Shown: positions 1 to 44,141 of the stretch, piece after piece
Position numbering within the stretch: the stretch's first letter is position 1
Layout of the letters: every line of letters begins with the position of its first letter
From: an uncultured Gammaproteobacteria bacterium
Lineage (GTDB): Bacteria; Patescibacteriota; Patescibacteriia; Magasanikbacterales; UBA922
Direction of reading: 5' to 3'
NCBI GenBank assembly: GCA_964603435.1
Contig: CAZRUM010000003.1
Location: forward strand, 1-44,614
Length of the DNA: 44,614 nt
Notes under the pieces: generated by a model
The model's database searches: none
The model's input: the letters and a program-made list of their open reading frames with translations, nothing else
What the model was told of the DNA's origin: nothing
Made by a program: the position numbers and the translations under genes

Positions 1-3000
1 CCCCATCAAGACTATTACACCACCCCCAGTTATCCAAAACCTGAACTTTTGGTTTAAAGACACAGACTTTTTCGGCATCTGAATTTAGCTTATAAATTTC
101 TCTTTTCATTTCATCTGTAAGAAGACCAATGCCCGGTAAAGAATCCGATTCAATATCAAAATTAGCACTTGCCAAATCACAACTAAGACTTTTGAAATAT
201 TCTTTGTAACTTGGCGTACAAGCACGTGGAGCATCTCCAAATCTACGCTCTCCTAAAGTACTATATCCTTCCGGTTGAGTTATATAATGACCAGTTTTTG
301 CACAAATTGTATTACCTACACCCATAAAAGTACAGTCTGCATTATCAAGACAAGTCATAGAAGTATTCCTACATCTGCCCAGCTCCTCTTCTTCGTAATT
401 AAACTCGTCTTTGCTAGCACAGTATGGTTTACTGTTTTTGAATAAACCATTTTCTATAAATAAATCATCATCACCATCATCCCAATTAATCATTACACGT
501 TTCAAAGGCATGTGATTGTCATCCACCGTTACAAAAAATCTAAGTATAGCTGGTAAGGTGCGATAGGCTACGATAGGGTCGGGATAGCCATCTAGTTTAC
601 CACCGTCTATACCATCCTCATCTGGGATTGGTACCCCGTCAGTACTAAAACCAAGACTATAATTATTCATAGTACCATTGCGCATATTGATGGTAAAATT
701 ATTTTCTTCGCCAGCAGTACACCTATCACTTTCAGCTGATACACAGATATCTGGATTAAGTGAATATATCTTTGGAGGAAAAGTTTCATTACCCCCATTA
801 CCCAAATCACCACTACGGTCCTCATCATTCAACAAACCAACTCCATAATTTGGCAACAGATTTTCTTCTTCTCCTTCTCCTGCAAATTTATAAGGAAAAC
901 CAGTAGTCGAATCAGGTTTTAAAGTTTTATTTATAAACACTTTTTTGAACACATCAAAAATAGCCTCTTGAGCTTCTGGTTTATCACGTTCGGACAAGCT
1001 ATCTACAAAATTATCAGAAAATACTCTTTTTGAATCATTATCCAAAAGATTTTTTAGACTACCACAATAATCTGTAAAACCATAATCAATACTTATCGAA
1101 GATAGCCAAGTTGTACGACAAGAATAAGGTATACCAAAATTTGCATATGACAAGAAAGAAGAATGGCGTAATACTTTTGGATCTTGAAAGTTTTCGCTTA
1201 TTGTTCCCTTGTCAGAGAGTATCATAGCTCCAAACGGTTTGTTTGGCTGGTCTTTTTCTAAGAATGATTTATAAAATGGACTAGGATGTCTCTTGCTGTC
1301 AGTATTATATTTTGGAGCAAATTCCCAAACCCTATTGGTCCAGGCCTTGTCTGTAGTCATGTTAAAATCAGCTCCTGGATCCTTATAAACCTGAGCAAAA
1401 TCAACACACTGATTATTTAGAGTAGCAATAGTAGCCAACATAATACCAGCATCTTCTGCATCTGCATTATTATGAGCAAAACAAAAACGAGAAACATAAC
1501 CCAAGAATTCTCCATCTTTGTTAAAATCCATACCAATAGCTAACCAATTATTTGTATTAAAACCCTTATCTTCTTCCCCTCCACTAAGACCAGAATACTC
1601 TTGAGTATCGTGTTTACATACAGTTGCAAAAGGATCATTAAGATGAAAAGACTCTTCACGACCATTGGTGGGGACATAATCTGTGTTATAAATACTCTCA
1701 ACCCCAAACCATTTTTGCAACACTTCTGTACTGTCAGCAAACAACATCACATATCTATCAGTTATTTTGTTTCTTTCGTCTGCAAGAGCATTAACAATAG
1801 CAGTATCTTCAGTAGAAAAAAGTCCATTCTCATAATTATTAAAAGATAAATCTACCAAGTCAACTTCATCCACATGATAAGACCACACAATATTTTTTAT
1901 TGTTTTGTTTCTACCCCTAGTAAAAATTTTAGATTCAGAATCAGAATAAGAAGCATTAGATATATTTTCTAAAAAATCAGACTTTACCCCATTTCTTAAT
2001 TTGTTGAAATCTATGTACATGTCTTTGGACAACAAGGCAGGCAACCTACCTTCAGCACCAAATGGAAAAGCCAAAGGAACAAAATATACCCTGTCTAAAT
2101 CTGAAATATTTAAAACACCTTCATATTTAGAACGATTAACCATGTTAGCAACATTATTTACATCACTCATCCAAGGTCCAGGAGACATAGCTATGGTTGA
2201 TATATTCCACCGACCATCACTCTCTGGAGGATCATAATAACTATCTTCTAATGATTGTTTTATATCTTGTTGTTTATAAAAATAACTGTAATCTGTGACA
2301 ACATTACTCTCTGGCCAGACCCTTGGAGGATGCATAATAGTACCATAGCTTACACGATTTGCGGTTGGGTGGGGAGCAAAAGAAAAAATACTTTTGATTG
2401 AAGTTTGATCATTGCTAGGAACCTCGTTATTACACCACTTTATATTCTCTCCCACATCTTTTTGTAAACAACCAAAACTGTATCCATCGCTTACCAAACC
2501 TGTTTCAGTACGCAACAATATACTATTTTTACCAATAAATTCCCAAGCCCATCTTTGCATCGTTCTTGACAAAGACCAAATTTCATTATCACAACAAACA
2601 GCTTTGTCATAACCTTCAGAGTTGGATATTTTTTCCTCATTTTCTTCCCCCCACATAGTGGGTTCACAAAATACAAGGCCACAATCCTTTTGTAAAAGAA
2701 GATCGGAATCAGCACAAACAGGATTGTCCAAATCGTCATTAAGTTCAGTACGTTTTGCTTTTTGGTAACCCTCTGGTAAAAAGTATTTATCATTTTGTAT
2801 TTCATTATACAAATCAGCTACCTTTGTTTTATCTGGATATGTTATTTCAAAAGTGGACGAAGCTATATTTACTGTTCTTGGCACCTGACTCTTAGTACCT
2901 GGATAATTATTTGCTTCACTACTAACTACATCAAATCTATATTCTACAGATAATTTCCAACCTTGAGCCACACACACATCAGCCGGACCAGTAAAAATAG

Positions 3001-6000
3001 GTTCATTCGGTTGATAATTTGGATATGCGGGTTTATTTTGAAATAGATAATCTACATCATATTTTGTAAAATCTACAACACCTTTGAACTCACCAAAATC
3101 AGGAGCAGGAACATTCATCCTAGGATTCCATGCCCAATGCCAAAAATGATAAGTATTTTCAGGAGTATTAGAAAAGGTTTTATCATCTTCATAAGGAGAA
3201 ACCGCAAAAGTATTTGTAGAATATGCAGGGAAAGCAGCACTAATAGGACCCCGGGCAACATTAGCTGGAGAAGATGATAAATCAACTCTTTTGTGCTTAT
3301 AAAGATTATTTTTATAACTTATAACACTCTCATCAAATACTATGTTTTTATTACCATTCTCATCTTCTAATTCTAACCAATCTGATTTAGCCTTATTTCT
3401 ATCTAAATATGCTTGACCTCCTAGTACCAATACATCATAAGTATTCCCCTCGTCGTTATTATCCTGCACAGTAGTATAAATGCTCTTATAGGGAATCATA
3501 CGATCTCTCCAATATATTTCCTTTCCATCATACTTAGCAACATAATCTTCCATTTCCTGTTTTCTTGCTTCTACCATATCTTTACAGCGATTATAGAATA
3601 CTTCAATTTTATGAGATTCGTTATTATAGGCTGAGTCTTGCTTAGTTGTTCCAAAAGCAAAAATATTTAAATCTATATTATCAGGATCATACGACATATA
3701 ACCTGTCATTTCCTCATCAAAATTATAATGATTATAAGATGATTCTACACAATAAGCTCCGGCTCCAGCTTCTCCATCTATTGCCAAATTGAAACCAGCT
3801 GAATCTGAAGATTCATATATATCAAATTTATTTTTTACTTCTTTTGGTAACCAGGTTAGACATGGGTATTCTACTACATTTCCACCTGGAGCTGCTTTTT
3901 TACCCAGTGGCCTACTCTTATCATACTCCAAACAAAAACCTTCTTGTCCCAAATAAGTACTTTGTGTTTGTTTTAATATACAAGTCCCCCTGTCATTAGC
4001 ATCTCCACAATCACGATCATCAAAACAAGGGACATTATCAGTTGGTAAAGTAGTATCCGTAGCATTGTCATAGCGCCCTCCACCAGAACAAATACCAGCT
4101 GGAATAGATTCATAAGTATATGGCCAATAATCAACTACTGAATTTCTATAAGTAACCTTACTATAACCACAGGAACATTCTCCATCCTGACAAACCTGAA
4201 CATTGTCAAATTCATTTTTCCTATAATCTAGCGCAAAACGTTTTACCCCAAGATCATTCTCAAAAACTTCATGTCCTACATTTGGATTCAAAACCAAAGC
4301 CTTAGAAAAAGGAGAATTGTCTTCTGGATAAGATTTGCAAGAAGTTGTTAGTAATTCTTTTTTGATGATTTCATCAGAAAGCTCTTCCACTGCAAAACCT
4401 ATTTCATCCCCACCGACTGGCATAACACAACCAATACCGTTTATACATTGACCTTTTTCTATCAATTTATCTCCCGCGTGGCTACCTGTATTTTCACATC
4501 TCTCTGCACCTTCAGAAGTATTACAATTAAATCTTTTGTCAACATAAACTAAATAGGGTTTATTATCTATATCAATTTGTTGCAAATCACCAACTGAAAA
4601 TTTGTTATAGAGAGAATAACCAGAATATTCTTCGTCATACCAGCTAGTACCACGACTAATATAATTTTCATAATCAAGAAAAGGTAACTCGCGCCCAAGA
4701 CTAGCAGAGGATTCCCACAAAGCACACTCACCACCTGGTCCCATCTCCAAACAACTACCATAGGAATAACATATTTTTTTACGAGTTCCATCAGCTTGCA
4801 AAATACTCTTATAACTTTGACAAGCTAACCATTCATTACAAGTCCTGTCACGATCAACTTTTAAAATTATATTGGCGTCCAAAACACCTGTACTTACTGG
4901 CCGAACAGGTAGATAACGCCCGACCTCTCCACTCGCATAATCTTTCTTTTGACTATTTGCTTCATAAGTAAGAGCTGTGTTATAAATTTTATTTGGCTCA
5001 TCAGTCTTATCAAATAAAACACAGCCATCATTTAAATTTACTTGGCTCTCACATTCTCTTGAACGTCTTTCTACTTCTTGGTCATAAATAATATAATAAG
5101 CACGTCCTGCTGAATCAATTCCGCCAGTATCAGCTTTATCAATTAATTCACGACAATTGTTGGCTGACGATGGACAGACACCTACCAAACCTTCGTACAA
5201 TACTGAACCATTGGAAGGTAATTGATATTCATAATTATGGCGAGGACCACAAGGTTCTGGCATTTCATCAATTTTTCCATCCTTATTTCTATCGATATCC
5301 CTATACCAACCGGAATATTGATTACCATTTTTATCTTCCACCAACGGACGATACACACACAAACCATTACCATTCAATTTTGGATCTTTGAAATAAGCCG
5401 GTCCATTGTCAGATTTAAATTCTCCACAAGATACCTGGTCACTAGTACATAAAGTATCACTATAATTACCTGGATCGTTTTTTACAAAAGTTTCGACAAA
5501 TTCAAAATCTGTGTCGATAGGACTAGTAGACCATTCTTTATATTCGCGCGCAGCTACTCTGGTACAGCCCATATCCTTATCATAACAAATATAATTTTCT
5601 GTATCTGTCAGATAAATTGGTGAATTTACTGGTGTATCGGCTGGAATAATAATTGTAGAATCAACTACCCAATCTTCAATCGCTTTAGCCTCTACTCCAT
5701 ATGGAAGCATAACTTCCTCAACAAAACAACCAGTCTGTCCATTTTCTATCTGACAAGTCCCAAGCTCTTCTGGTTCAACCCCTATTTCCCCCTCTGCTTC
5801 TATTTCAATTTTACATTCACCTACATAATCAACAACATCACTGACACACCACAAATTGTAAACCAAGACATCTTCAGAATCCAGGGTATTATAGGTATCA
5901 TACAAAGCAGTACAACCCACTGCCTCAGGTCGACACAGGCTATCAAAGCCAATTGCAAAAGCAGTTCTATCTCTATCATCTCTGTAAGCCTGACAACCTA

Positions 6001-9000
6001 GAGCCAAACCTGGGAAACCATCGTATGGACTAACATCGCAAGAAGTAGAAATATCATAACCTTCACTAGTTTTCCAAGAATCTTTTATAAGAGCATATTG
6101 ATCTTCCAATCTAGTAACACGTACATTATCCAAATAATAACTCTTTCCAGAAGTACGAGGATCAACAATAAACTTCAGACCAACTTCACTACTAGTAGTA
6201 CCCGTAAATTGTACTGGACCAAATTTATATTCTTGCCATTCATTACCGAGAGATACTGGCAAATTTTGTTGTAAATTTATATCATAAGTAAAACTACTAT
6301 TTTCAAATTCAGCTTGTTTAAAATAAATTTCATTAATATTTTGTGCCTCACCGCGAGCCCAAAAACTCAATTCATACCAAGCATAGCTATCAATATCTTC
6401 ACCAGGTTGAAATATATAAGTTATATCACTTGACGCTTGCAAGGAATACCCACCAACATAAATCGATTCCGGTCTGACTTTGGCAGTAGAGGTCCAGCCA
6501 GTCTGAGCTATTTCCAAAGCAGCATCATCATCTGATGTCGGTTCAAAACCAGCAAAGTAAACTTCTTCTATATTACCACCTTGATTTCCTACATATTTAC
6601 GACAACCATTGGCAATAGCAGGACAAGAAATTGATTCACTAGGAATAGAATAATAAATACAGGTCTGATAGCCTTCATCATAAAAACCACCATTACTACA
6701 GCGTTGGCACTCACCACTACCACCGTCATTACCATTCCAAAGACCACCTTTTCTAGTACAGCTATCTGCTGAATCTAGATTATTATCAACAGCCAGATAT
6801 GCTTTTGTCTTGCGCAGAGGATGACAATCATCTGATACAATCACCGTCTTACTTAAAATTCTATAATATATACTACCTTCTCTATCATAAAGTGCCCGGC
6901 AACCTGAATCAAAACCACGAGCCCCCAGATTGTATGGACTATTTAGATGTAAATTATATATATCTTCATTACAGCTAGCATAATTTTCTTCCAATTCTAC
7001 TTCACTATCACCCGCATACACTGGGGAACCAAGTGGAAAATCTGACCTAAGACTAGCAAAAGCAGTCGCATCCAAATAAGCGACGTCATCAACATCCACT
7101 GGCTTCATCCGATGAATTTTCAACACATAACCTGTCAATTCAGAACCTTCCCAAGAATAATAAGCTTTTTCATTTTCCCCACTAGGATCTTCACAATATT
7201 TTAAATCAATATAATATTCCAAACCTTCACCACCAGCAGACATCTCATCTATGTTGGTAAATTGATCACAACCAGCATAGACACCATTACATTCATTGGC
7301 GCCTTGACTAGAATAGTCATTACCAGGAGTGAAATAAAGTGGAAATTCTTCTGGTTCAAACTCTGTTGCTAACTGTTTATAAGTATCATAACCCACACAC
7401 TCAGCCTGACAGAGATTATCACCAATAATACCAGGAATTTCTGGACTAGTTGGATCAGCTATACTAGAATACAACTGACAACCCACTTCACTTGAGATAC
7501 AAACCTGTGAAAAATCTGCACATTCCTCTGGTCGATCTTTTATAGACACCAGATCAACTTTGGTCTGTGGCCAGTCTATGTCATACTCTCCATCGTAAAT
7601 ATCTTTGTCATAACAACCCAGATAATCTGGTGCTTTTTGCAAATAAACTGGATTACCCTGTCCCCCATCATCCCTCACATCATAAAAAAGATTACAACCA
7701 TCGGCGTCTTCGCTACAAGTGAAGTTGGCAATTTTATTATTAAAATAAATATTTTGATTCCAACTACTTAGTTTTTTATCAACATCAAGCTCTAGGTTTG
7801 TTAGCCAACCTTCTTTATCTCCTTCTAGGGCGTAAGGTTGACAACCCACAGACTCGAGATTACAACGACCATAATCAAGTGTCCTATTTAAATATGGGAT
7901 TACTTCACCTTTATTATTTACATAAGTCTGGCAAGTATTGTATTGTTTATCACAAGTCTCAACCCCTAGTTTCCAAATATTTTTTTCTTGTAAACAATAA
8001 CTATAATAATTTTCTATTTTATTAGTATCCGTTTGACTCTCTTCTTCTGTAAAAATTGTAGTTGAATACTCTACACATTCTGTCCGCCTAACATCTCCGC
8101 CTGAGTCAATTAGCTGTGGACCCACAACCAGAGATTCACAACGAATCTCGGGAATTTTTAAAATCCAATTTGGATTGACAAGATGACAAAAAGGTTTGGC
8201 AGAACTTGGTACCACTATTTCATTACCACTTGAGTCCTTTTCATAATTACAATCCTCAAAACCATTCACCACATTTTCTAAAGTCCAATTTTCTAGATTG
8301 TCAGGATCAGCCCTCAAAGCCGCAATCTCAAAACCAAGTGGCAAAATTCTCGCTTTTCTTAATTTTTGAATATTATAATAACAATAACCATTTTGATAAC
8401 AACGAACAACATCCTGATTATCAATTTCACGCTTTGGTGAAATAAATGACCACTTGGCATGCAACATGTCTTGATCCATTGCCTCTTTAATAGTTAGAGG
8501 GTTATCTTCTGTTCTGCCAACTTCCAAAGCTCTCTGCAAACCAGTATCCATGACACAATTATTAAGACTGAGACCAGCCCCACTCTCTTCACAAGCTGCA
8601 AATTCTGTAAGTAATGGATAATTATTTAACTGTTGATTGGGAAAATCTGTAAATAAAAAGCTGAAAGCTTTCTCGGCCTTTTCTTTATTTAATACAACTT
8701 GACTATAAAAATCTGTAACTGCCTCAGTAGAGGCATCACCTGACGACGATCCAGACAACAAGTCCCCACTCATTAATCTGTCCAATAAACTAGTGGCCAA
8801 AGTATTCAAAAAGACACTCGCAGCCTGAGGTAATATTTGTAACATCCCTGCACCATAAACACCTGCTATTTGTTCAGATGTCATTTTTGAATTATGAGTT
8901 GCAGAAAATAATTCCATTTCTTTGGCCACGGTTTGACCAGGAGTTTTTATCTTATCAGAAATAAGATCTGTAACTGCTTTTATGCCTCCCCCTTCTAATC

Positions 9001-9808
9001 TTGATACTTCGGCGGATTTTTCTTCCTTAGCTTTCAAACGATCGAGTTGTGCCATAGCCCCCATTGCAATACCAAAATCTGTATCTTTGACACGAATAGA
9101 ATCATGAAAAGTACGAGCAATCAATCCACGACCACCAGGACCATATTTTCTTTCAAAGGCCTCAGCGCTCCAAGAATCGCTTAAGTTTTGCCAATTACAT
9201 TTTGGGGTAGGCCCGCCACTGTTCGCACCATTGACTCCATACTCATTATCATACATATTGCGCAAGCCAATCTGAATATACAATTGAGCTTGTAAATTTG
9301 GTGTCTGACAAAGATTGAGACCAAAAGGTTGGCCAAATGATTCTATACCCTCAGCTACTGAATCCAAAGCTACATTTTTAAAATAATCACCTGGAGAATT
9401 TTGGTAAATAAGAGCCCCCTTACCCTTACCACCATAAGACACGTACTTAGCTGCATCATAAGCCAACTTACGTGTAAAATATGACATACCATTCATCAAA
9501 GCTGACATAGCAGCAGCTGTCATGCCGGTTTCTACTTGTTCGAGTATTGACACAATTGTAGAAGGTGTATCCGCAACTACAGCTACAGGTGCTCCTAACG
9601 CATTTTTACCTGCATTTGAAGCCGCCTTAGCTGCCTCTGCCGAGTTCGCTATTTTATCTAATGATTCAAATAAAGAAGTCAAAGGGGGTAGCGCAGCCTG
9701 TGCACTATTTTTAGAAGTCAAAGAAAAAATCCCAAACAAATTCACCAACAAAAAAATCACCAATAGAATACTTAGGCCTGCTTTATTTTTTTTATTTAAA
9801 AAATACAT
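1..9808 (-). CDS. giant secreted cysteine-rich surface protein; 5' end complete, 3' end beyond window (at least 3269 codons)
   Basis: Hand translation of the reverse complement from ATG 9808-9806 stays open in one frame to base 2. The track lists no ORF in this frame because it never reaches a stop; the four minus ORFs listed inside it are in another frame. N-terminus MYFLNKKNKAGLSILLVIFLLVNLFGIFSLTSKNSAQA looks like a signal peptide. Many Cys modules follow. Confidence 0.85.
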   Translation of the reverse strand, partial: MYFLNKKNKAGLSILLVIFLLVNLFGIFSLTSKNSAQAALPPLTSLFESLDKIANSAEAAKAASNAGKNALGAPVAVVADTPSTIVSILEQVETGMTAAAMSALMNGMSYFTRKLAYDAAKYVSYGGKGKGALIYQNSPGDYFKNVALDSVAEGIESFGQPFGLNLCQTPNLQAQLYIQIGLRNMYDNEYGVNGANSGGPTPKCNWQNLSDSWSAEAFERKYGPGGRGLIARTFHDSIRVKDTDFGIAMGAMAQLDRLKAKEEKSAEVSRLEGGGIKAVTDLISDKIKTPGQTVAKEMELFSATHNSKMTSEQIAGVYGAGMLQILPQAASVFLNTLATSLLDRLMSGDLLSGSSSGDASTEAVTDFYSQVVLNKEKAEKAFSFLFTDFPNQQLNNYPLLTEFAACEESGAGLSLNNCVMDTGLQRALEVGRTEDNPLTIKEAMDQDMLHAKWSFISPKREIDNQDVVRCYQNGYCYYNIQKLRKARILPLGFEIAALRADPDNLENWTLENVVNGFEDCNYEKDSSGNEIVVPSSAKPFCHLVNPNWILKIPEIRCESLVVGPQLIDSGGDVRRTECVEYSTTIFTEEESQTDTNKIENYYSYCLQEKNIWKLGVETCDKQYNTCQTYVNNKGEVIPYLNRTLDYGRCNLESVGCQPYALEGDKEGWLTNLELDVDKKLSSWNQNIYFNNKIANFTCSEDADGCNLFYDVRDDGGQGNPVYLQKAPDYLGCYDKDIYDGEYDIDWPQTKVDLVSIKDRPEECADFSQVCISSEVGCQLYSSIADPTSPEIPGIIGDNLCQAECVGYDTYKQLATEFEPEEFPLYFTPGNDYSSQGANECNGVYAGCDQFTNIDEMSAGGEGLEYYIDLKYCEDPSGENEKAYYSWEGSELTGYVLKIHRMKPVDVDDVAYLDATAFASLRSDFPLGSPVYAGDSEVELEENYASCNEDIYNLHLNSPYNLGARGFDSGCRALYDREGSIYYRILSKTVIVSDDCHPLRKTKAYLAVDNNLDSADSCTRKGGLWNGNDGGSGECQRCSNGGFYDEGYQTCIYYSIPSESISCPAIANGCRKYVGNQGGNIEEVYFAGFEPTSDDDAALEIAQTGWTSTAKVRPESIYVGGYSLQASSDITYIFQPGEDIDSYAWYELSFWARGEAQNINEIYFKQAEFENSSFTYDINLQQNLPVSLGNEWQEYKFGPVQFTGTTSSEVGLKFIVDPRTSGKSYYLDNVRVTRLEDQYALIKDSWKTSEGYDISTSCDVSPYDGFPGLALGCQAYRDDRDRTAFAIGFDSLCRPEAVGCTALYDTYNTLDSEDVLVYNLWCVSDVVDYVGECKIEIEAEGEIGVEPEELGTCQIENGQTGCFVEEVMLPYGVEAKAIEDWVVDSTIIIPADTPVNSPIYLTDTENYICYDKDMGCTRVAAREYKEWSTSPIDTDFEFVETFVKNDPGNYSDTLCTSDQVSCGEFKSDNGPAYFKDPKLNGNGLCVYRPLVEDKNGNQYSGWYRDIDRNKDGKIDEMPEPCGPRHNYEYQLPSNGSVLYEGLVGVCPSSANNCRELIDKADTGGIDSAGRAYYIIYDQEVERRSRECESQVNLNDGCVLFDKTDEPNKIYNTALTYEANSQKKDYASGEVGRYLPVRPVSTGVLDANIILKVDRDRTCNEWLACQSYKSILQADGTRKKICYSYGSCLEMGPGGECALWESSASLGRELPFLDYENYISRGTSWYDEEYSGYSLYNKFSVGDLQQIDIDNKPYLVYVDKRFNCNTSEGAERCENTGSHAGDKLIEKGQCINGIGCVMPVGGDEIGFAVEELSDEIIKKELLTTSCKSYPEDNSPFSKALVLNPNVGHEVFENDLGVKRFALDYRKNEFDNVQVCQDGECSCGYSKVTYRNSVVDYWPYTYESIPAGICSGGGRYDNATDTTLPTDNVPCFDDRDCGDANDRGTCILKQTQSTYLGQEGFCLEYDKSRPLGKKAAPGGNVVEYPCLTWLPKEVKNKFDIYESSDSAGFNLAIDGEAGAGAYCVESSYNHYNFDEEMTGYMSYDPDNIDLNIFAFGTTKQDSAYNNESHKIEVFYNRCKDMVEARKQEMEDYVAKYDGKEIYWRDRMIPYKSIYTTVQDNNDEGNTYDVLVLGGQAYLDRNKAKSDWLELEDENGNKNIVFDESVISYKNNLYKHKRVDLSSSPANVARGPISAAFPAYSTNTFAVSPYEDDKTFSNTPENTYHFWHWAWNPRMNVPAPDFGEFKGVVDFTKYDVDYLFQNKPAYPNYQPNEPIFTGPADVCVAQGWKLSVEYRFDVVSSEANNYPGTKSQVPRTVNIASSTFEITYPDKTKVADLYNEIQNDKYFLPEGYQKAKRTELNDDLDNPVCADSDLLLQKDCGLVFCEPTMWGEENEEKISNSEGYDKAVCCDNEIWSLSRTMQRWAWEFIGKNSILLRTETGLVSDGYSFGCLQKDVGENIKWCNNEVPSNDQTSIKSIFSFAPHPTANRVSYGTIMHPPRVWPESNVVTDYSYFYKQQDIKQSLEDSYYDPPESDGRWNISTIAMSPGPWMSDVNNVANMVNRSKYEGVLNISDLDRVYFVPLAFPFGAEGRLPALLSKDMYIDFNKLRNGVKSDFLENISNASYSDSESKIFTRGRNKTIKNIVWSYHVDEVDLVDLSFNNYENGLFSTEDTAIVNALADERNKITDRYVMLFADSTEVLQKWFGVESIYNTDYVPTNGREESFHLNDPFATVCKHDTQEYSGLSGGEEDKGFNTNNWLAIGMDFNKDGEFLGYVSRFCFAHNNADAEDAGIMLATIATLNNQCVDFAQVYKDPGADFNMTTDKAWTNRVWEFAPKYNTDSKRHPSPFYKSFLEKDQPNKPFGAMILSDKGTISENFQDPKVLRHSSFLSYANFGIPYSCRTTWLSSISIDYGFTDYCGSLKNLLDNDSKRVFSDNFVDSLSERDKPEAQEAIFDVFKKVFINKTLKPDSTTGFPYKFAGEGEEENLLPNYGVGLLNDEDRSGDLGNGGNETFPPKIYSLNPDICVSAESDRCTAGEENNFTINMRNGTMNNYSLGFSTDGVPIPDEDGIDGGKLDGYPDPIVAYRTLPAILRFFVTVDDNHMPLKRVMINWDDGDDDLFIENGLFKNSKPYCASKDEFNYEEEELGRCRNTSMTCLDNADCTFMGVGNTICAKTGHYITQPEGYSTLGERRFGDAPRACTPSYKEYFKSLSCDLASANFDIESDSLPGIGLLTDEMKREIYKLNSDAEKVCVFKPKVQVLDNWGWCNSLDG

Positions 9809-9811
9809 AAA

Positions 9812-13744: not shown

Positions 13745-13787
13745 GATTTAAGATTTAAGACTTATGACATAAGACTCATTGACATTT
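13745..13787. repeat. heptamer array (GAYWTAA-type) at the 3' end of four-helix-bundle gene 2
   Basis: GATTTAA GATTTAA GACTTAT GACATAA GACTCAT, then GACATTT. The inverted copy GACATAA GACTTAA GATATAG lies at 14141-14161. Confidence 0.65.
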
Positions 13788-14132
13788 TATAAGACCATTC
13801 AACATCCTACCAATTTTTCTAGCCTTATTGGTCAATTCTTCTGCCTGTTTCAAATTAATATATTTTAAATGTAAAGTTAATATAAAATAATATTTAGTCT
13901 CTTCAAGTGAGGTATCAGACATTGTATAAAAATGTTTTCTATCTTTTGATGTTTTTCTTTTTGTTCCTTCTACAATATTAGCTACGATTGAGACCGATGA
14001 TCTTCTCACTTGAGACACTAAACCATACAACTCGTGTTTAGGAAAATCCTCTGTAATCTTATAAACCTCCAAAACTAATTTATGTGCCTCAAACCACACA
14101 TCTAATTTTCTCCATTTTTCTAATGTTTCCAT
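13776..14132 (-). CDS. four-helix-bundle protein (23S rRNA IVS protein family)
   Basis: RRSSVSIVANIVEGTKR motif; 118 aa. Confidence 0.85.
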   Translation of the reverse strand: METLEKWRKLDVWFEAHKLVLEVYKITEDFPKHELYGLVSQVRRSSVSIVANIVEGTKRKTSKDRKHFYTMSDTSLEETKYYFILTLHLKYINLKQAEELTNKARKIGRMLNGLIKCQ

Positions 14133-15326: not shown

Positions 15327-15692
15327 TCACAACCCCAAACTCTTTGCATACTGACCAATCCAGGGTAGTTCTTTCATATTACCCTGTAAAGCATTTACTA
15401 AACCAACTATCATAAGTATAAGGCAAGCAATATTCCCCAATAAACCTACCAGCCAACCCAAGATTGGAATCATCATGACTGCGCCAAATACCACCCAAGC
15501 AATCAGTAAGACCAAGCCCTGTTTACCATGAAACTGCGCGTACTGACTATCCTTTTTTAATAAAAGTGGTACTAAACATAAAATACCAAGATAACTAATA
15601 GCAGCAATTACTTTATTTTCTTCTACATCATTTGGACTAGTTGATTGTTGTGAGGGTTGTTGAGATTGTACTGGAGGCATTTGTTGATCCAT
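15327..15692 (-). CDS. small multi-pass membrane protein, DUF4870-like
   Basis: AAISYLGILCLVPLLLKKDSQYAQFHGKQGLVLL pattern. Confidence 0.6.
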   Translation of the reverse strand: MDQQMPPVQSQQPSQQSTSPNDVEENKVIAAISYLGILCLVPLLLKKDSQYAQFHGKQGLVLLIAWVVFGAVMMIPILGWLVGLLGNIACLILMIVGLVNALQGNMKELPWIGQYAKSLGL

Positions 15693-15744
15693 ATTTTTAA
15701 TTTTAAGGATTACTTATACATTATATAATGAATAAAGGAAAAAT

Positions 15745-16515
15745 GAAACAAAAAACCCTGCATTATTACACAATTCCATAGTGGCATATTGAACAAATGT
15801 GGGATAACAAATAATCATTTAAGATATATTTACTACCATGTGAGCCTAAGCCCAACTACCAACAATTGCCTCGCTCACCATAGAGCTGTTACTATCTGCA
15901 GGGTTTCTGACTCCGAAATAAATCGGAGGGAGGTATAACTACTCATAACTGGTATGACTTAAAAATTACGGCTAAGATAGTTTATCTCCTCCAAGAGGCT
16001 TTTTTAATCCGCCGCGGTATCTATCAGATCCCCTTCCATTCGATCCGAATCTCCGTCTCAGATTGCTTCAACAAATATTTTCAGTACTTGTTTTGCATCC
16101 CCTTCAGTTTGACCTGCCCTGGCAATTTTTGCCAGAACCATCCCTCGACAAACTCCTTTACTTTCATACAGCGAAAGATATTACTATCTAACTTCTCTGT
16201 GAAGCAAAGATGTGTCTGAAGTCAATGGGTCAACCGTTTACGAAGGTGCTGTTGACGGTTCACGGGATTAAAAAAGCCCAAAGTAGGAGACAAGCTCAAT
16301 ATGCCGTACATATATGATCTCGTGATGCCTGTCAGTAACACGAAATCGATGTCGAACACTATGTGCCTGCCACCAACTCTAGGCTTTTACCCTACCACCA
16401 AATGGAAGTAGTGTAGTGAGTTGAGGGACTTCCTCTATATAAATTTTGAATTCCCTCTTTTGTTCTTGTCTCTACCAACCTAAAGTCGGTATTTTGTCCT
16501 TTTATATTCCACGAC
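15745..16515 (-). ncRNA. candidate large structured RNA (unclassified), ORF-free G+C-rich island
   Basis: About 925 bp with no ORF of 60 aa or more in any frame. Own promoter at 16522-16550. Many local hairpins. A 10-bp long-range helix AAACCCTGCA/TGCAGGGTTT (15897-15906 with 15753-15762) is followed by a T run. Confidence 0.35.
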
Positions 16516-16521
16516 AAGGGT

Positions 16522-16550
16522 ATTATGTCATCCAGAGCACCATCTGTCAA
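16522..16550 (-). promoter_or_regulatory. sigma70-like promoter driving the ORF-free island
   Basis: Minus strand TTGACA, 17 nt, CATAAT. Confidence 0.5.
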
Positions 16551-16566
16551 GCTGGGGATAAAAATA

Positions 16567-16590
16567 AATTTAGCTAAGCTTAGCTAAATT
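16567..16590 (-). terminator. 24-nt perfect palindrome terminator after the O-antigen-ligase-like gene
   Basis: AATTTAGCTAAGCTTAGCTAAATT followed on the minus strand by TATTTTTAT. Confidence 0.55.
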
Positions 16591-16618
16591 ATATATAAAA
16601 GGTGGACTTCCTGTGGAG

Positions 16619-17935
16619 CTACTGTGTATTATATTTGGACAAAACGCCCCAATACAGCCCCGAGAGCATTAGACCTACATAGGAGGTATAAAGATAATGA
16701 TCGAAACACATCAGCAAGCAGTAAACAACAAGCAACAAAATTGATAACAACAAATATTTTCTTATAAAAGAAAAGTTTAAAATAATAAAAGAAACAAAAA
16801 CACAAACAATCAAAATAATGCCCACAATACCCAGCTCAGAAAATAACAACAAACCAACATTGTGCACCGGCTGATATTGCCAACCTGGTAAATTTGGATT
16901 TTGTTCATACAATGCCAAAGTATAATTTCCTGCTCCCACACCTAGCCACATATTATTTTTAAAAATATCAATTGATTCCCCTACTTGATTTTTCCTCTCT
17001 GTGATTGATTCTATTTCATTGGCTGAAGTACCAGAAACACGCACTGCCAAAACTGGAATTAAAATTAAAATTAAAATAATTATCGGTAATATAGTAAGGC
17101 TAGCTTTATAAAAAAAATGTTTCAAAACCAATTTTTTTTCTGACAAATAATAAATAATTAAAACTACAGGTAAAGCCAGCAAAGCTGAACGACTGAAAGT
17201 AAAAAATAAAGTAGTAAGTAGTAAACAATAAGTGAAAAACAAAATAATTTTAAATTTTTTGTCTCTGACTTTCAAACTAAATAATGATAAAAATAATATA
17301 ACTATAACTAAATAGCCTCCAAAAATATTTGGATGATTTAGAGATCCATAAGCACGAAGCAACCTGCCCAAACCCGTACCAGATACAATCGAGGCTCCAG
17401 CCAAACTAGAATCATAACCAGCCAAACCTAACCATTTACAAGCCAGGCTACTTTGCCAGACAAATTGAAATATTCCCAACAAAACTGGCAAAATAGAACC
17501 TAAAATCAACCAACGAGCCATAGATTTAAAATCAAGCGGACCCAAAAATAAAATAAAAAATAATAAAAAGCCTTCCATAATACGCAGACCATGTTGCCAA
17601 GCCAGCTGACTATCCAGTGCCCACACAGATGACAATAAAACATAAATTGTAAATAATAAAATAGAAAAAACAAAAATCCTATCTCGAGAAATTTGAAATT
17701 TTAAATCTCTAAACTTTGCTTTCTTTTTCTGCCAAAACCAACCTAGAAACACTAAGACAATTGACCATAATAAAATTTCTGTTGCATAAAAACCAAGCGT
17801 CCCCCATTGTAATTTGTAACCATGAGTACTCACCTCTCTGTATATCCAAATAGTTTGCCAAGGCAATAAAAACAAGAAGGCCTTAATTAAAAAATTAAGT
17901 ATTTGTTCCAAATGAATTTCTTTTTTATACCACAT
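16619..17935 (-). CDS. O-antigen ligase / Wzy_C family polytopic membrane protein
   Basis: About 10 or more TM segments and the FTFSRSALLAL motif. Confidence 0.7.
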   Translation of the reverse strand: MWYKKEIHLEQILNFLIKAFLFLLPWQTIWIYREVSTHGYKLQWGTLGFYATEILLWSIVLVFLGWFWQKKKAKFRDLKFQISRDRIFVFSILLFTIYVLLSSVWALDSQLAWQHGLRIMEGFLLFFILFLGPLDFKSMARWLILGSILPVLLGIFQFVWQSSLACKWLGLAGYDSSLAGASIVSGTGLGRLLRAYGSLNHPNIFGGYLVIVILFLSLFSLKVRDKKFKIILFFTYCLLLTTLFFTFSRSALLALPVVLIIYYLSEKKLVLKHFFYKASLTILPIIILILILIPVLAVRVSGTSANEIESITERKNQVGESIDIFKNNMWLGVGAGNYTLALYEQNPNLPGWQYQPVHNVGLLLFSELGIVGIILIVCVFVSFIILNFSFIRKYLLLSILLLVVYCLLMCFDHYLYTSYVGLMLSGLYWGVLSKYNTQ

Positions 17936-18905
17936 ATTTTTTACATTTTTCTAACCACTTATCTCGATATTCCTCCCGCCTATCATTCTCATGAAACTTC
18001 AACATCTTATCATTTACCACTACCCGAGTGTCTGGTTCATTTTGCACACTCATATAATTTAGCTTCATACGATTGAGCTGCATACCACGAGCTTGAGCCT
18101 CGAGCAAACTTCCATATCCACTACCCCAAATTTTTTCTAATAATTTTTTAAATTTAAAATTACCCTGAACTTTCCACCTATCTATAACATCATATTTTTG
18201 AAATGCATTTGGCAAATCCTGTTTTACCCAAGTATTAGCCCTTTGTAGGCTACTAAATAAATTATCTGGGTCATAAACTGGAATAAGCTGAGCCAACCAA
18301 TACTTCATATAAATATCATCCTTTATTGTTACACTTTCTAAATTCAAATTATCATCAGTCACATAAAAACTCAAACAAATTTTATTTTTAATTTTTCTTT
18401 TTGTACGCCTCATACCAAAAAAACCGAGGTAAAGTGTGACAAGACTGCGAGCTAAAAACAATCTACCTTTTTTTATAATAATGAAAACATCAATATCGCT
18501 GTCTTCATCAACCACTGAACTTGATAGAGTATTACAAACAAACACTGCTCGCACAAATGGCATACTGGCAATTTTTTTTACACCACGCTTCGCAATCTTC
18601 ATTTTATCTTCTACCAGCTTTACCCTGTCCTGTCTTTTTTCTACAATCTCTTCCCCGCCTGCAACGCTTGCACCCCGCCTGCCATTGCCTGGCACTGGAG
18701 GGCAGGTAGCATTGCGGGCAGGTCTACCAGATAAAAAATAAAACCCATCTTTATTTTCAAACTCAGATAATTGATCCACAAAATCTGCATAATCTTTTAC
18801 CCCTACCCCTTCTGCATATAAATACCTAAATAACTCCTCACTCGTGAGAGGATAATCAAAAATATCAAAATAGGCCAAAGTTTTTATAATAGAATTTTCT
18901 AACAT
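17925..18905 (-). CDS. hypothetical protein, possible nucleotidyltransferase fold
   Basis: IKTLAYFDIFDYPLT N-terminus and DEDSDIDVFIII motif. ATG at 18905 preferred. Overlaps the next gene by 11 nt. Confidence 0.6.
   Translation of the reverse strand: MLENSIIKTLAYFDIFDYPLTSEELFRYLYAEGVGVKDYADFVDQLSEFENKDGFYFLSGRPARNATCPPVPGNGRRGASVAGGEEIVEKRQDRVKLVEDKMKIAKRGVKKIASMPFVRAVFVCNTLSSSVVDEDSDIDVFIIIKKGRLFLARSLVTLYLGFFGMRRTKRKIKNKICLSFYVTDDNLNLESVTIKDDIYMKYWLAQLIPVYDPDNLFSSLQRANTWVKQDLPNAFQKYDVIDRWKVQGNFKFKKLLEKIWGSGYGSLLEAQARGMQLNRMKLNYMSVQNEPDTRVVVNDKMLKFHENDRREEYRDKWLEKCKKYVV
18654..18724. repeat. GC-rich nested palindromic element inserted in frame
   Basis: Coding strand CCTGCCCGCAATGCTA...AGCGTTGCAGGCGGG encodes PARNATCPPVPGNGRRGASVAGG. 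The arms match the nusA copy. Confidence 0.7.
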
Positions 18906-19121
18906 AATAGTAATAGTGTACCGTAAATTTAACAAAAACAAAACCCCATTACGTACTCCCTTCCATATTTCCAAACCTTGGAAAGACAGAAGGCAACGCA
19001 ACGAGGTTGTGTTGTGTTACCCACCCCTATTACCGGGATTTGATGTAGTCAATCACCACCTGCTGCACCAAGAGGTGTGATCGGAGGTAGGTCGATCACA
19101 CACAGAGCAGATAAGGATCCT

Positions 19122-19304
19122 CTAGCCCCACCTCGCCGAATGGCTGCCAGATTCGACAATCTGGTGTCTGCGGACAGGCACATGTTGCGGAAGCTGAGCT
19201 TTTCGCAACTTTCGAAGACGACTGATGATAGCCCCCTCACGAGCCTTCTTGTCCACCTGCTTCCTTTTACGACTCGCACTACGTGTAGTAGATCCTCGAC
19301 CCAT
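19122..19304 (-). CDS. small basic protein (60 aa) in a G+C-rich island
   Basis: GGAGAGGGGG SD, 4 nt, then ATG. MGRGSTTRSASRKRKQVDKKAREGAIISRLRKLRKAQ... Own promoter. No family recognised. Confidence 0.4.
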   Translation of the reverse strand: MGRGSTTRSASRKRKQVDKKAREGAIISRLRKLRKAQLPQHVPVRRHQIVESGSHSARWG

Positions 19305-19356
19305 AGGGCCCCCTCTCCATTTTTCTGACAAAGTCAGACTAATTGACAATACAGAG

Positions 19357-19385
19357 ATTTAACCATATTTTATAAAATTTGTCAA
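19357..19385 (-). promoter_or_regulatory. sigma70-like promoter of the small basic ORF
   Basis: Minus strand TTGACA, 17 nt, TTAAAT. Confidence 0.5.
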
Positions 19386-19395
19386 TGTTTATTTC

Positions 19396-19428
19396 AAAAA
19401 TAAAAAGACCACCTATGATTAGGTGGTC
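19396..19428 (-). terminator. yidC intrinsic terminator
   Basis: Minus strand GACCACCT AATCAT AGGTGGTC followed by TTTTTATTTTT. Confidence 0.7.
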
Positions 19429-19452
19429 AGGTAGTTAGGTAGTTAAGTGATT
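19421..19452. repeat. AGGTGGTY octamer array, four units, between the yidC stop and its terminator
   Basis: AGGTGGTC AGGTAGTT AGGTAGTT AAGTGATT. The first unit is the terminator arm; the last overlaps the stop codon. Confidence 0.75.
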
Positions 19453-22027: not shown

Positions 22028-22054
22028 AAAAAAAAGCAGCATTTATAATGCTAC
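22028..22054 (-). promoter_or_regulatory. terminator-like hairpin in the nusA leader (possible attenuator)
   Basis: Minus strand GTAGCATT ATAA AATGCTGC followed by TTTTTTTT, just downstream of the predicted promoter. Confidence 0.3.
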
Positions 22055-22067
22055 TTTCAACGATATA

Positions 22068-22096
22068 AGTATACCATAAGGTAAGTGTTTTGTCAA
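22068..22096 (-). promoter_or_regulatory. nusA promoter
   Basis: Minus strand TTGACA, 17 nt, TATACT, with extended -10 TGG. Confidence 0.5.
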
Positions 22097-22166
22097 GTTA
22101 CTAATACACCTACAAATTTTAAAGCCAACACCCCACACTTAAAACTCTCATCCTATCTCTCTTTCT

Positions 22167-22325
22167 GCGAACAACCCCTCCACCCTTCGGGCACCTCCCC
22201 TTTAGGGCACACTATCCTTTAGGGAGAATGGGGAGGGAATTTGAAAAATACTTTCCCCTCCTCCACTTTTCGCCAGGGGACGAATCCTCTAGAGAGCTAA
22301 GGAAGGAGGTCAGGAGGTGGGTTCC
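22167..22325. repeat. modular GC-rich intergenic repeat, copy 1
   Basis: Block A (22167-22202) matches 42048-42083 at 35 of 36. Block B TTTAGGGCACACTATCCTTTAGGG (22201-22224) is identical to 42123-42146. CCTCCCC/GGGGAGG hairpin arms. Confidence 0.8.
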
Positions 22326-22365
22326 TCGCACGTAAATTCTACCTTCTACTTATACACAAAGAAAA

Positions 22366-43142: not shown

Positions 43143-43304
43143 AATACCAACATTATACCACAAATAAAAAAACCATTCTATAATTAAAATGATTTTTTAA
43201 CCCAAATATATTTTTACAAACAAACTTGGGAGAAGTGCGGACAACGAGGTCCGCGGGTTGAAAGATCGGAAGGAACGAAAGGAACGGGAGAGGATGAACG
43301 AACT

Positions 43305-43493
43305 CTAGTGTCCAGAGCCATAGATCTTGGCACGAAGCCCTGCCTGTGAAAGCTCCGGACCAGGGGCGTAGGCGACACCAAGCTCTTCGGCGGTTTTGTC
43401 GGTGAAAGAACGAGGGCCCTGCTGACTCCTCTTCATCTTCCATTGGCTGGCAGGCCGTCGTGGTTTACGGCGAGAAAATCCCGATACCCTCAT
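43305..43493 (-). CDS. small basic protein (62 aa), third gene of the G+C-rich operon
   Basis: AAGGAGG SD, 5 nt, then ATG. MRVSGFSRRKPRRPASQWKMKRSQQ... Confidence 0.5.
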   Translation of the reverse strand: MRVSGFSRRKPRRPASQWKMKRSQQGPRSFTDKTAEELGVAYAPGPELSQAGLRAKIYGSGH

Positions 43494-43513
43494 GTGTCCT
43501 CCTTTTCCCGAGT

Positions 43514-43747
43514 CTACTGACTCTTGTTGCTCAGACCAGCCTGGCGCACCTGCTCGAGCAATTCGCGCTGTTCTTTATCAGTCGGACACTCACAGCCGAG
43601 AAAACCGACGCCGTAGTCGACATCTCCGAGGTGTTCGGTCTCGACTGGTCCGCGATCACGGAGCCTTTCCTGAACTTCCCGCCTCACATCCTATGGCGAA
43701 GGTGATGGCAAGGGAGCCAGAAGCCAATCACTTGCTCGAGTAAGCAT
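43514..43747 (-). pseudogene. paralogue of the 43770-43967 gene, interrupted by an in-frame TAG at 43691-43693
   Basis: AAGGAGGTGTGA SD plus ATG. MLTRASDWLLAPLPSPSP, stop, then DVRREVQERLRDRGPVETEHLGDVDYGVGFLGCECPTDKEQ... aligns with its neighbour. Confidence 0.5.
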
Positions 43748-43769
43748 TTTATCACACCTCCTTAACGCA

Positions 43770-43967
43770 TCAGCCCAGGAACTGAGTCCATCTGCGAGCT
43801 CTCTCTTCGGCATCAGGATCCTCACAGCGAAGGAAGCTGCCGTCGTCACCATCGAGATCACTGAAATGCACGGTCTCGACAGGACCTTGGTCTAAGATCA
43901 TAGCTTGCCACTCTTTCACTGGAGTGGGAGGAATTTCGAATCCATCCAAAACCCAAGGATTACCCAT
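43770..43967 (-). CDS. small acidic protein (65 aa), first gene of the G+C-rich operon
   Basis: GGAGGTGTGA SD, 4 nt, then ATG at 43967. MGNPWVLDGFEIPPTPVKEWQAMILDQGPVETVHFSDLDGDDGSFLRCEDPDAEE... Confidence 0.55.
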   Translation of the reverse strand: MGNPWVLDGFEIPPTPVKEWQAMILDQGPVETVHFSDLDGDDGSFLRCEDPDAEERARRWTQFLG

Positions 43968-44006
43968 TTTCTCACACCTCCGTGTGGCCGTTGACGTTGT
44001 ATACCT

Positions 44007-44035
44007 AGTATAGATAATTACCCAAAAAAAGGCAA
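44007..44035 (-). promoter_or_regulatory. promoter of the three-gene G+C-rich operon
   Basis: Minus strand TTGCCT, 17 nt, TATACT. Confidence 0.5.
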
Positions 44036-44141
44036 TTGAAACCCCTTGCCCTCCACACCCAAACATGCTATAATATCGTCGTAATTTTAATAAAAACTGC
44101 CGACTCCGTAAGACTCGTCGGCTTTATAAGCCTTTATATTT

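Follow-up and report, generated by a model that had tools for sequence, protein, structure and literature searches.

Several families of large structured non-coding RNA have been described in bacteria, each with a characteristic genomic context: ROOL and GOLLD occur in prophage or tRNA contexts, HEARO (omega RNA) is associated with IscB, and OLE with oapA and oapB. To our knowledge, bacterial non-coding RNAs of 450–770 nucleotides (nt) with covariation support are few. Among the smaller housekeeping RNAs, the RNA of the signal recognition particle (SRP) has a universal GNRA tetraloop, AGCA/AGG loop nucleotides and the symmetric and asymmetric loops of helix 8, and 6S RNA has a large central bubble flanked by long helices. 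The Patescibacteria, or candidate phyla radiation (CPR), account for a large part of bacterial diversity; their genomes are very small and hardly any of them has been cultivated. Full-text searches on Magasanikbacteria, Patescibacteria and CPR found no account of a lineage-specific non-coding, small or structured RNA. Here, we analyse a 44,614-nt stretch of DNA from this lineage (contig CAZRUM010000003.1; hereafter the window), in which a gene-free spacer of 926 bp (15693–16618) almost certainly encodes a real, conserved structured-RNA gene. We class the RNA as a new family among the orphan structured RNAs of bacteria, in which one sub-clade appears to have acquired an unusual switch. We give a probability of roughly 60% to the full model, in which a short core hairpin acts in trans and a long isoform arises by read-through and refolding.

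The long forms of this RNA resemble OLE, ROOL, GOLLD, HEARO and raiA RNAs in being non-coding, multi-domain, covariation-supported transcripts of 449–770 nt, and in having come to notice through a relatively G+C-rich spacer free of open reading frames (ORFs). However, none of the covariance models of ROOL, GOLLD, HEARO, OLE and raiA matches the RNA, and compared with ROOL, GOLLD, HEARO and OLE it occupies a fixed chromosomal place, between a Wzy-like gene and groES. In contrast to the large ornate RNAs, the conserved unit is only about 117 nt long, and the long form contains an internal terminator-like hairpin together with alternative pairings. The resemblance to OLE, ROOL and GOLLD is limited to the size of the long form. 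An earlier reading of the DNA sequence alone (the original prediction) likened the RNA in size to ROOL, GOLLD and HEARO, which it does not resemble in sequence, structure or genomic context; its remark that no known family could be recognized agrees with Rfam 15. At gathering scores, Rfam 15 detects only a tRNA elsewhere in the window and only a tRNA in 14 related loci. A search of the RNA region at E ≤ 10 gives four chance-level matches of 13–15 bits, against gathering scores of 35–86, and none of the four is to ROOL, GOLLD, HEARO, OLE or raiA; ARAGORN reports only a distant tRNA-Leu.

The spacer lies between a gene for a Wzy_C/O-antigen-ligase-like protein (16619–17935; hereafter Wzy) and a DUF4870 gene (15327–15692), both on the minus strand. 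The longest ORF in any frame has 52 amino acids and stops are spread throughout all six frames, in line with the predicted lack of ORFs of at least 60 amino acids, and Pfam gives no match at E ≤ 1 to the nine small ORFs of the gap. The promoter, the core and the terminator-like elements of the region are as follows.

16568–16607, minus strand: palindromic terminator-like element of the Wzy gene (AATTTAGCTAAGCTTAGCTAAATT plus flanks), read directly from the sequence
16522–16550, minus strand: sigma-70-type promoter, with -35 TTGACA at 16545–16550, a 17-nt spacer, an extended -10 TG at 16529–16530 and -10 CATAAT at 16522–16527
16270–16386, minus strand: core RNA, a rod-like hairpin of about 117 nt with 43–44 bp, conserved in every relative
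16325–16338, minus strand: apex of the core, UUA-CU-GACA-GG-CAU, with a GACA tetraloop on a 2-bp mini-helix above a 3x3 internal loop; proposed as a recognition site
16270–16279, minus strand: terminator-like element T1 (GGGCUUUUUU), the base of the core hairpin plus U6, read directly and conserved in relatives
15746–15758, minus strand: terminator-like element T2 (GGGUUUUUUGUUU) with a U-run at 15746–15755, read directly and conserved in relatives

The palindrome, which is kept in relatives as TTTGGCTTA..TAAGCCAAA, appears to mark the end of the preceding Wzy transcription unit, and the promoter sits directly downstream of it. The promoter matches the consensus at 11 of 12 positions in the promoter/terminator scan. 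Because about 5.8 promoter-like sites are expected by chance in this stretch, the single match in the window is weak on its own. However, TTGAC, a 17-nt spacer and a -10-like hexamer occur at the homologous place in 32 of 32 loci, and the -35 and -10 columns are invariant in the alignment of full spacers. The minus-strand TTGACA-N17-CATAAT that had been pointed out at 16550–16522 is therefore not only present but has an equivalent in all relatives. The predicted 771-nt transcript of the minus strand folds at -248 kcal/mol, compared with -195 ± 8 for shuffled sequences (z = -6.5), and the plus strand gives z = -4.4. By domain, the z scores are -6.3 for the core, -3.7 for the 3' module, -3.65 for the insert and -2.7 for the 5' leader. 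The description of the region as a G+C-rich island holds in part: the G+C content of the RNA region (0.39–0.41) and of the core (0.45) is modestly above that of the window (0.36), but it was overstated because two other spacers of the window are richer (19002–19450, 0.465; 22043–22365, 0.433).

The contigs of relatives were obtained through Wzy homologues with 84% down to 38% identity, which their sources name Candidatus Magasanikbacteria or Patescibacteria. A search of GTDB genomes with the Wzy protein gave no tblastn-confirmed match, and no record identical to the DUF4870 protein was found. A gene-free gap lies directly 3' of Wzy in every locus that extends past Wzy. Full spacers align from the Wzy terminator through the invariant -35 and -10 elements and the transcript to a shared end, GGGGTTTTTTGTTT. 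In L002, whose Wzy protein is 65% identical to that of the window, a 152-nt spacer block is 91% identical, and identity of the block remains 78–91% where Wzy is about 50% identical, so that the block is far more conserved than the flanking coding DNA. No information comes from the locus of the closest Wzy homologue (L001, 84% identity), whose contig breaks off within the palindrome of the Wzy terminator. The end of that contig carries an inverted copy of its last 42 bases (7309–7378), an assembler artefact at a perfect palindrome that masks the RNA copy of that organism.

The core is present in all 32 related loci, with 78–91% nucleotide identity where the flanking Wzy protein is 45–65% identical. 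The distant relatives L013, L016 and L018 have only the promoter, a sequence of about 125 nt and a T-run. RNAalifold folds the nine core sequences first retrieved by synteny into one rod-like hairpin of 44 pairs, in which 97% of the alignment cells pair and 27 pairs are changed on both sides, compared with 11 in shuffles and 2–6 in slid controls. A covariance model, R1, was built from the core, and GTDB genomes were scanned with a pattern of the apex containing 16 specified bases. The 119 loci found in this way are mostly chance occurrences, but 21 match the full-length model at 68–145 bits. Eight matches of the apex pattern lie on phage contigs; none of them fits the full-length model, and they are chance matches. 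Over 28 distinct core sequences, with 95.1% of the cells paired, double changes affect 33 of 43 pairs, and the score for covariation reaches 0.557, compared with 0.09–0.12 in slid controls. The covariation test that the original prediction had proposed on homologous spacers thus gives a strong result, both for the core and for the 3' module described below (21 of 35 pairs doubly changed). R1 scores the core at 143.8 bits on the minus strand and 38.4 bits on the plus strand. Because this score is strand-specific and the promoter is oriented, the structure belongs to RNA and not to DNA. The irregularities of the hairpin are limited to 1-nt bulges and one small internal loop, and in short forms the helix starts 0–28 nt past the predicted transcription start.

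The first nine sequences obtained by synteny share an identical apex. Among the loci retrieved in that way, the most distant have the variants UUAUCGACAGGCAU and UU-UCGACAGGCAU, in which the 2-bp mini-helix and the GACA tetraloop are preserved. With its own promoter, single long stem-loop, conserved apical loop and U-tail, the RNA resembles RNA I/CopA-type plasmid antisense RNAs and many Hfq-independent small RNAs. However, it is conserved across a lineage at the level of an order or class and not across a genus or a plasmid. Neither the window nor about 250 kb of related loci yielded an antisense or nearby target, and the apex looks structured, with a mini-helix and tetraloop, and not like an open seed.

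The gene order is conserved in 31 related loci: a nucleotidyltransferase (NTase)-fold protein (unk358), Wzy and the RNA, followed by groES-groEL in 26 of the 31; DUF4870-RF is another downstream context among them. In the window and in L007, L009, L012 and L131, groESL is no longer downstream, and in L092 Wzy is no longer upstream; the RNA is retained in all of them, with 78–91% identity where groESL has moved away. That the RNA survives the loss of either neighbour argues that it is an independent gene and not a leader or a 3' untranslated region. Judged from its sequence, the minus-strand RNA is an independently transcribed structured RNA with its own predicted promoter, a terminator-like end and no ORF. 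This is the type of gene, with its own promoter and terminator, that had originally been predicted, and covariation and the promoter in 32 of 32 loci support it. The groES gene has its own TTGACA promoter and an operator known as the controlling inverted repeat of chaperone expression (CIRCE), both located after the U-tract of the RNA. Such a promoter with a CIRCE-like inverted repeat is seen at 3090–3250 in L002 and at 5600–5695 in L018 (TTATCACTC-N9-GAGTGCTAA; TTAGCACTC-N9-GAGTGACAG), and these repeats upstream of groES point to HrcA-type heat-shock control in Magasanikbacteria.

In most relatives, the gene consists of the promoter, the hairpin and a U-tract only. The original estimate of a large RNA of about 770 nt is valid as a size for the window, but the conserved unit is the hairpin of about 117 nt. 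A long form occurs in 12 loci only, all of them closer relatives including the window, and adds a 5' leader of 65–143 nt, an insert of 14–271 nt and a 3' module of roughly 270 nt (range 243–351 nt), reaching from the nearly invariant GGAGGAGA to a closing helix and U-run that resemble a terminator. The leader and the module always co-occur, and the other long forms are 449–688 nt long, compared with about 770 nt in the window. The parts of the long form, from 5' to 3' along the RNA, are as follows.

16387–16515, minus strand: 5' leader, in long forms only; contains V; fold z = -2.7
16477–16490, minus strand: V (ACCGACUUUAGGUU), complementary to W; proposed anti-terminator
16365–16386, minus strand: W (AAGCCUAGAGUUGGUGGCAGGC), 5' basal strand of the core, which pairs with X or, alternatively, with V
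16263–16295, minus strand: X (GCUUGUCUCCUACUUUGGGC, 16276–16295) and the U-tract (U6 and AAUCCCG, 16263–16275), 3' basal strand of the core and T1; alternative partner Y
16015–16262, minus strand: variable insert between the core and the 3' module, with hairpins at 16119–16135 and 16161–16177
15984–16014, minus strand: Y (CGGCGGAUUAAAAAAGCC...GGAGGAGAU), an A-tract and the GGAGGAGA resembling a Shine-Dalgarno (SD) sequence, which pairs with X and the U-tract or, through its GGAGG part, with Z
15746–15983, minus strand: rest of the 3' module, homologous in 12 of 12 long forms, with the Y:Z hairpin, a hairpin at 15911–15928, the closing helix, the inner helix and T2
15925–15934, minus strand: Z (ACCUCCCUCC), alternative partner (CCUCC) of the GGAGG of Y
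15897–15906 with 15756–15762, minus strand: closing helix, in which AAACCCTGCA (RNA AAACCCUGCA) pairs with TGCAGGG (UGCAGGG), followed by a T-run
15859–15870 with 15792–15803, minus strand: inner helix (GGCAAUUGUUGG with CCCACAUUUGUU)

From the position of the promoter, transcription probably starts near 16515 (GUCGUGGAAU...), and the 5' end of the leader, GTCGTGGA, is conserved in L002, L005 and L074. The 3' module has 35 pairs, of which 21 are doubly changed; 88.3% of the cells are paired and the covariation score is 0.55, compared with 0.13–0.17 in slid controls. Its closing helix, which had been noticed as a 10-bp long-range helix that closes a 3' domain ahead of a T-run, covaries in relatives (92% paired, 5 of 11 pairs doubly changed). 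All four of the individual hairpins that had been named are present, but they differ in conservation. Two of them, CTGGCAAAAATTGCCAG at 16119–16135 and CTTTCGCTGTATGAAAG at 16161–16177, lie in the insert and have no counterpart in relatives, whereas the other two, CTCCGATTTATTTCGGAG at 15911–15928 and GTGAGC/GCTCAC at 15873–15878/15840–15845, belong to the conserved 3' module. The insert is gapped or unalignable in relatives, with about 190–250 nt being largely window-specific, and the distance from the core to GGAGG ranges from 14 to 271 nt among long forms. In L077 and L035, just 14–16 nt separate the U-tract of the core from the 3' module. Because this gap is too short for a promoter, the 3' module must arise by read-through.

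The closing helix and terminator of the module (AAACCCUGCA...UGCAGGGUUUUUU; 15746–15906) resemble the base of the core hairpin (AAAGCCUAGAG...CUUUGGGCUUUUUU; 16270–16386), and the inner helix GGCA..UUGG/CCCACAUUUGU resembles GGCAGGC/GCUUGUC of the core. These similarities suggest that the 3' module may stem from a tandem duplication of the core; R1 does not detect a core-like copy in the module.

The basal strands of the core can take part in more than one pairing. W and X pair at 20 of 20 positions in all 11 long forms analysed. X is identical in 11 of 12 long forms and freely variable in short forms, suggesting that it is under a second constraint. In the long forms, X, the U-tract and the following GAUCC are complementary to Y (GGAUC-AAAAAA-GCC...GGAGGAGA) in one continuous register of 28 positions, over which 82% of the cells are paired and 5 pairs show double changes; the energy of the duplex lies between -14 and -29 kcal/mol in 32-nt windows and reaches -43 in longer windows. 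The GGAGGAGA itself is identical in 11 of 12 long forms and reads GGAGGGUA in L035. V binds W better than any other part of the leader in 11 of 11 long forms, with 14–15 contiguous bp and z scores of -2.7 to -5.1, and only 0–3 of 200 shuffles match it as a partner of W. In the V:W pairing, 95.5% of the cells are paired and 4 pairs are doubly changed, as in L042, where CCUAG>CUCAG in W goes with UAGG>UGAG in V; some of these double changes fall at positions that are looped in the local hairpin of V itself. The state with both V:W and X:Y is the unconstrained minimum free energy (MFE) structure of the full-length RNA in L074, L007, L009 and L012, and lies within 1.1 kcal/mol of the MFE in four more RNAs (0.1 in the window). 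By these predictions, the alternative state and the hairpin state are nearly equal in energy in 8 of 11 full-length RNAs. Among downstream sequences, Y pairs best with the homologous Z in 8 of 11 long forms. Mutually exclusive, conserved pairings of predicted terminator and anti-terminator type are therefore present in the long forms only.

Instead of a single rigid fold, the long transcript seems to be a bistable RNA with two isoforms. In our model, the short hairpin RNA would be trans-acting, with its apex engaging a protein or another RNA. In long forms, RNA polymerase would stop at W:X and U6 to give a short isoform, or would read through the W:X hairpin, which would be favoured when V captures W. 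After read-through, Y would capture X and lock the second conformation, yielding the isoform of about 770 nt. Such a switch would set the ratio or the conformation of two non-coding isoforms and would not control an ORF. The long form shares with attenuators and riboswitch platforms a terminator-like W:X hairpin with U6, an upstream strand, V, that captures its 5' half and a downstream strand, Y, that captures its 3' half, each of them conserved. However, unlike attenuators and riboswitches, it controls no ORF, its read-through product is another structured RNA ending in T2, it has no recognizable aptamer or leader peptide, and the short forms have no switch. Neither a downstream coding region nor a sensor was found, as there is no conserved ORF after GGAGGAGA and no Rfam aptamer. 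A small ORF behind the SD-like GGAGGAGA was considered and rejected, since no start codon or reading frame is conserved among long forms; the conserved UAUG.GUAGUU is better explained as a helix strand than as an ORF.

Several observations weigh against this model or narrow its basis. The invariance of the apex rests on 11 distinct synteny-retrieved loci because the other 21 homologues were retrieved by the apex pattern itself. No complement of the apex that could serve as a target occurs beyond chance in the window, nor does a conserved 8-mer complement in about 250 kb of related loci. The state with V:W and X:Y lies 4.6–17 kcal/mol above the MFE in L042, L002, L057 and L035. The high degree of V:W pairing arises partly by construction because V was selected as the best partner of W, and the GGAGGAGA/UCUCCUAC part of X:Y is untestable by covariation because it never varies; L035 has two mismatches in this part. 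The similarity underlying V:W and X:Y could also be partly a legacy of internal duplication. The promoter/terminator scanner reports no terminator, although this is uninformative rather than negative because its rules (a loop of 3–8 nt and at least 3 G-C pairs), which exclude such long-range stems, do not fit a 44-bp hairpin. The start near 16515, both 3' ends and the read-through are all predictions from the sequence.

The same data can be read in other ways. The whole of about 770 nt might form a single functional fold as one large ornate RNA, with V:W and X:Y as native helices and the internal 'terminator' as a structural hairpin. The constant association of leader and 3' module fits such a fold, as do the MFE structures of L074, L007, L009 and L012, the better folding of every domain compared with shuffles and the covariation of the 3' module. 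We nevertheless consider it unlikely, because most relatives carry the 117-nt hairpin alone, between 14 and 271 nt of insert separate the modules, W:X is fully paired (20/20) and followed by U6 in every long form, and no large-RNA model of Rfam matches. Somewhat less likely still is a role in cis, as a leader or attenuator of the genes downstream (ancestrally groES-groEL), in which regulated read-through of the hairpin would feed the chaperonin operon. In 26 of 31 related loci, groES follows the RNA on the same strand; among the 17 short-form loci with groES, 15 have its start 91–207 nt past the core; and the hairpin is terminator-like, with alternatives resembling a terminator and an anti-terminator in the long forms. 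A leader of this kind is difficult to reconcile with a groES that has its own TTGACA promoter and CIRCE after the U-tract of the RNA, with long forms that end in a second terminator before the groES promoter, with short forms that have no sensing leader because their helix begins 0–28 nt after the predicted start, and with the high conservation of the RNA in the window, L007, L009, L012 and L131, where groESL is not downstream.

A divergent universal housekeeping RNA, either 4.5S SRP RNA or 6S RNA, would account for the size, rod shape, strong promoter, clade-wide presence and near-invariant apex. Like 4.5S RNA, the core is a hairpin of about 115 nt whose 5' and 3' ends pair; it has small bulges, a tetraloop, an internal loop close to the tip and a strong promoter of its own, and its apex is highly conserved. 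However, no SRP or 6S model scores at E ≤ 10 in a search space of 1.3 kb, and none matches at gathering scores in 14 relatives. The apex, UUA/CAU with GACA, lacks the signature nucleotides of SRP RNA and its tetraloop is not GNRA; SRP RNA was rejected on these grounds. 6S RNA was rejected as well, as the hairpin lacks a large central bubble and is interrupted by just 1-nt bulges and a single small internal loop. This makes a housekeeping identity of either kind very improbable. The idea that there is no RNA at all, and that the spacer is the remains of a protein gene or a palindrome acting at the DNA level, for example in recombination or replication, draws on the long ORF-free stretch between genes and the long inverted repeat, and is effectively refuted. 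The pseudogene that had been named as a case to rule out is excluded by the six-frame translation, with stops in all frames, and by the Pfam search of the nine small ORFs. The substitutions are compensatory within helices and not codon-patterned, the many G-U pairs make the structure strand-specific (143.8 vs 38.4 bits), the promoter is conserved and oriented, and blastn against plasmids and phages gives no match to the region. The two-isoform model with a trans-acting core is preferred over these explanations.

Strongly promoted and kept in every examined genome of a clade at the level of an order or class, the RNA is likely to matter to the cells that carry it. Its helices are held by compensatory change and its apex is essentially frozen. 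An attenuation logic that chooses between two non-coding isoforms would, if true, be an unusual use of attenuation. On a more tentative note, and with considerable doubt, the RNA could be a housekeeping-type ribonucleoprotein RNA specific to Magasanikbacteria whose conserved GACA apex binds a dedicated partner, with the sub-clade switch yielding a second structured non-coding domain; it would then be the first lineage-wide orphan RNA of CPR. The linked NTase-fold protein or the Wzy-like membrane protein is a conceivable partner of the apex. The covariance model R1 provides a handle for annotating these metagenome-assembled genomes (MAGs) and for mining metatranscriptomes.

The gene for unk358 (17925–18905, minus strand) is always directly upstream of the Wzy-like gene and overlaps it. 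The protein has no sequence match in Pfam, NCBIfam or the PDB. Its AlphaFold model (pLDDT 87) has a Pol-beta-type nucleotidyltransferase core, with the aminoglycoside NTases ANT(4')/AadA, MNT antitoxins and HalB as the closest structures (E ~3e-3, TM ~0.3). Because these matches are weak, no conclusion is drawn on its substrate, and an assignment as an RNA-specific enzyme was rejected.

The unk358-Wzy-RNA-groESL locus of the Magasanikbacteria type also occurs in L020, L021, L035, L055, L072, L082 and L084, which are GTDB MAGs titled 'uncultured Gammaproteobacteria bacterium'. Between their GroEL proteins and that of L002, which is closely related to the window, identity is 75–80%. Because they have Magasanikbacteria-type synteny in common, these labels appear to be wrong.

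Other features were observed elsewhere in the window. The minus strand of the spacer at 19002–19450 has a TTGACA-type promoter-like site and GGAGAGGGGG followed by AUG, with a fold z score of -2.5; it may hide a small unannotated basic ORF. An ORF of at least 3270 amino acids (2–9811, minus strand) runs off the left end of the window and is a giant protein gene; being cut by that edge, it is missing from the list of ORFs. The region 43164–44100 has a G+C content of 0.53–0.55, compared with 0.36 for the genome, no Rfam match and weak folding (z = -2.0). It contains two paralogous minus-strand ORFs, 43770–44066 (98 amino acids) and 43514–43687 (57 amino acids), with the common motif ...GPVET.H..D.D...F..CE.P..., and looks like a foreign coding islet. 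A four-helix-bundle protein resembling 23S_rRNA_IVP/bAvd is encoded at 13776–14132 (minus strand) between Sua5 and a release-factor gene, and it probably does not belong to a diversity-generating retroelement because no reverse transcriptase is seen nearby.

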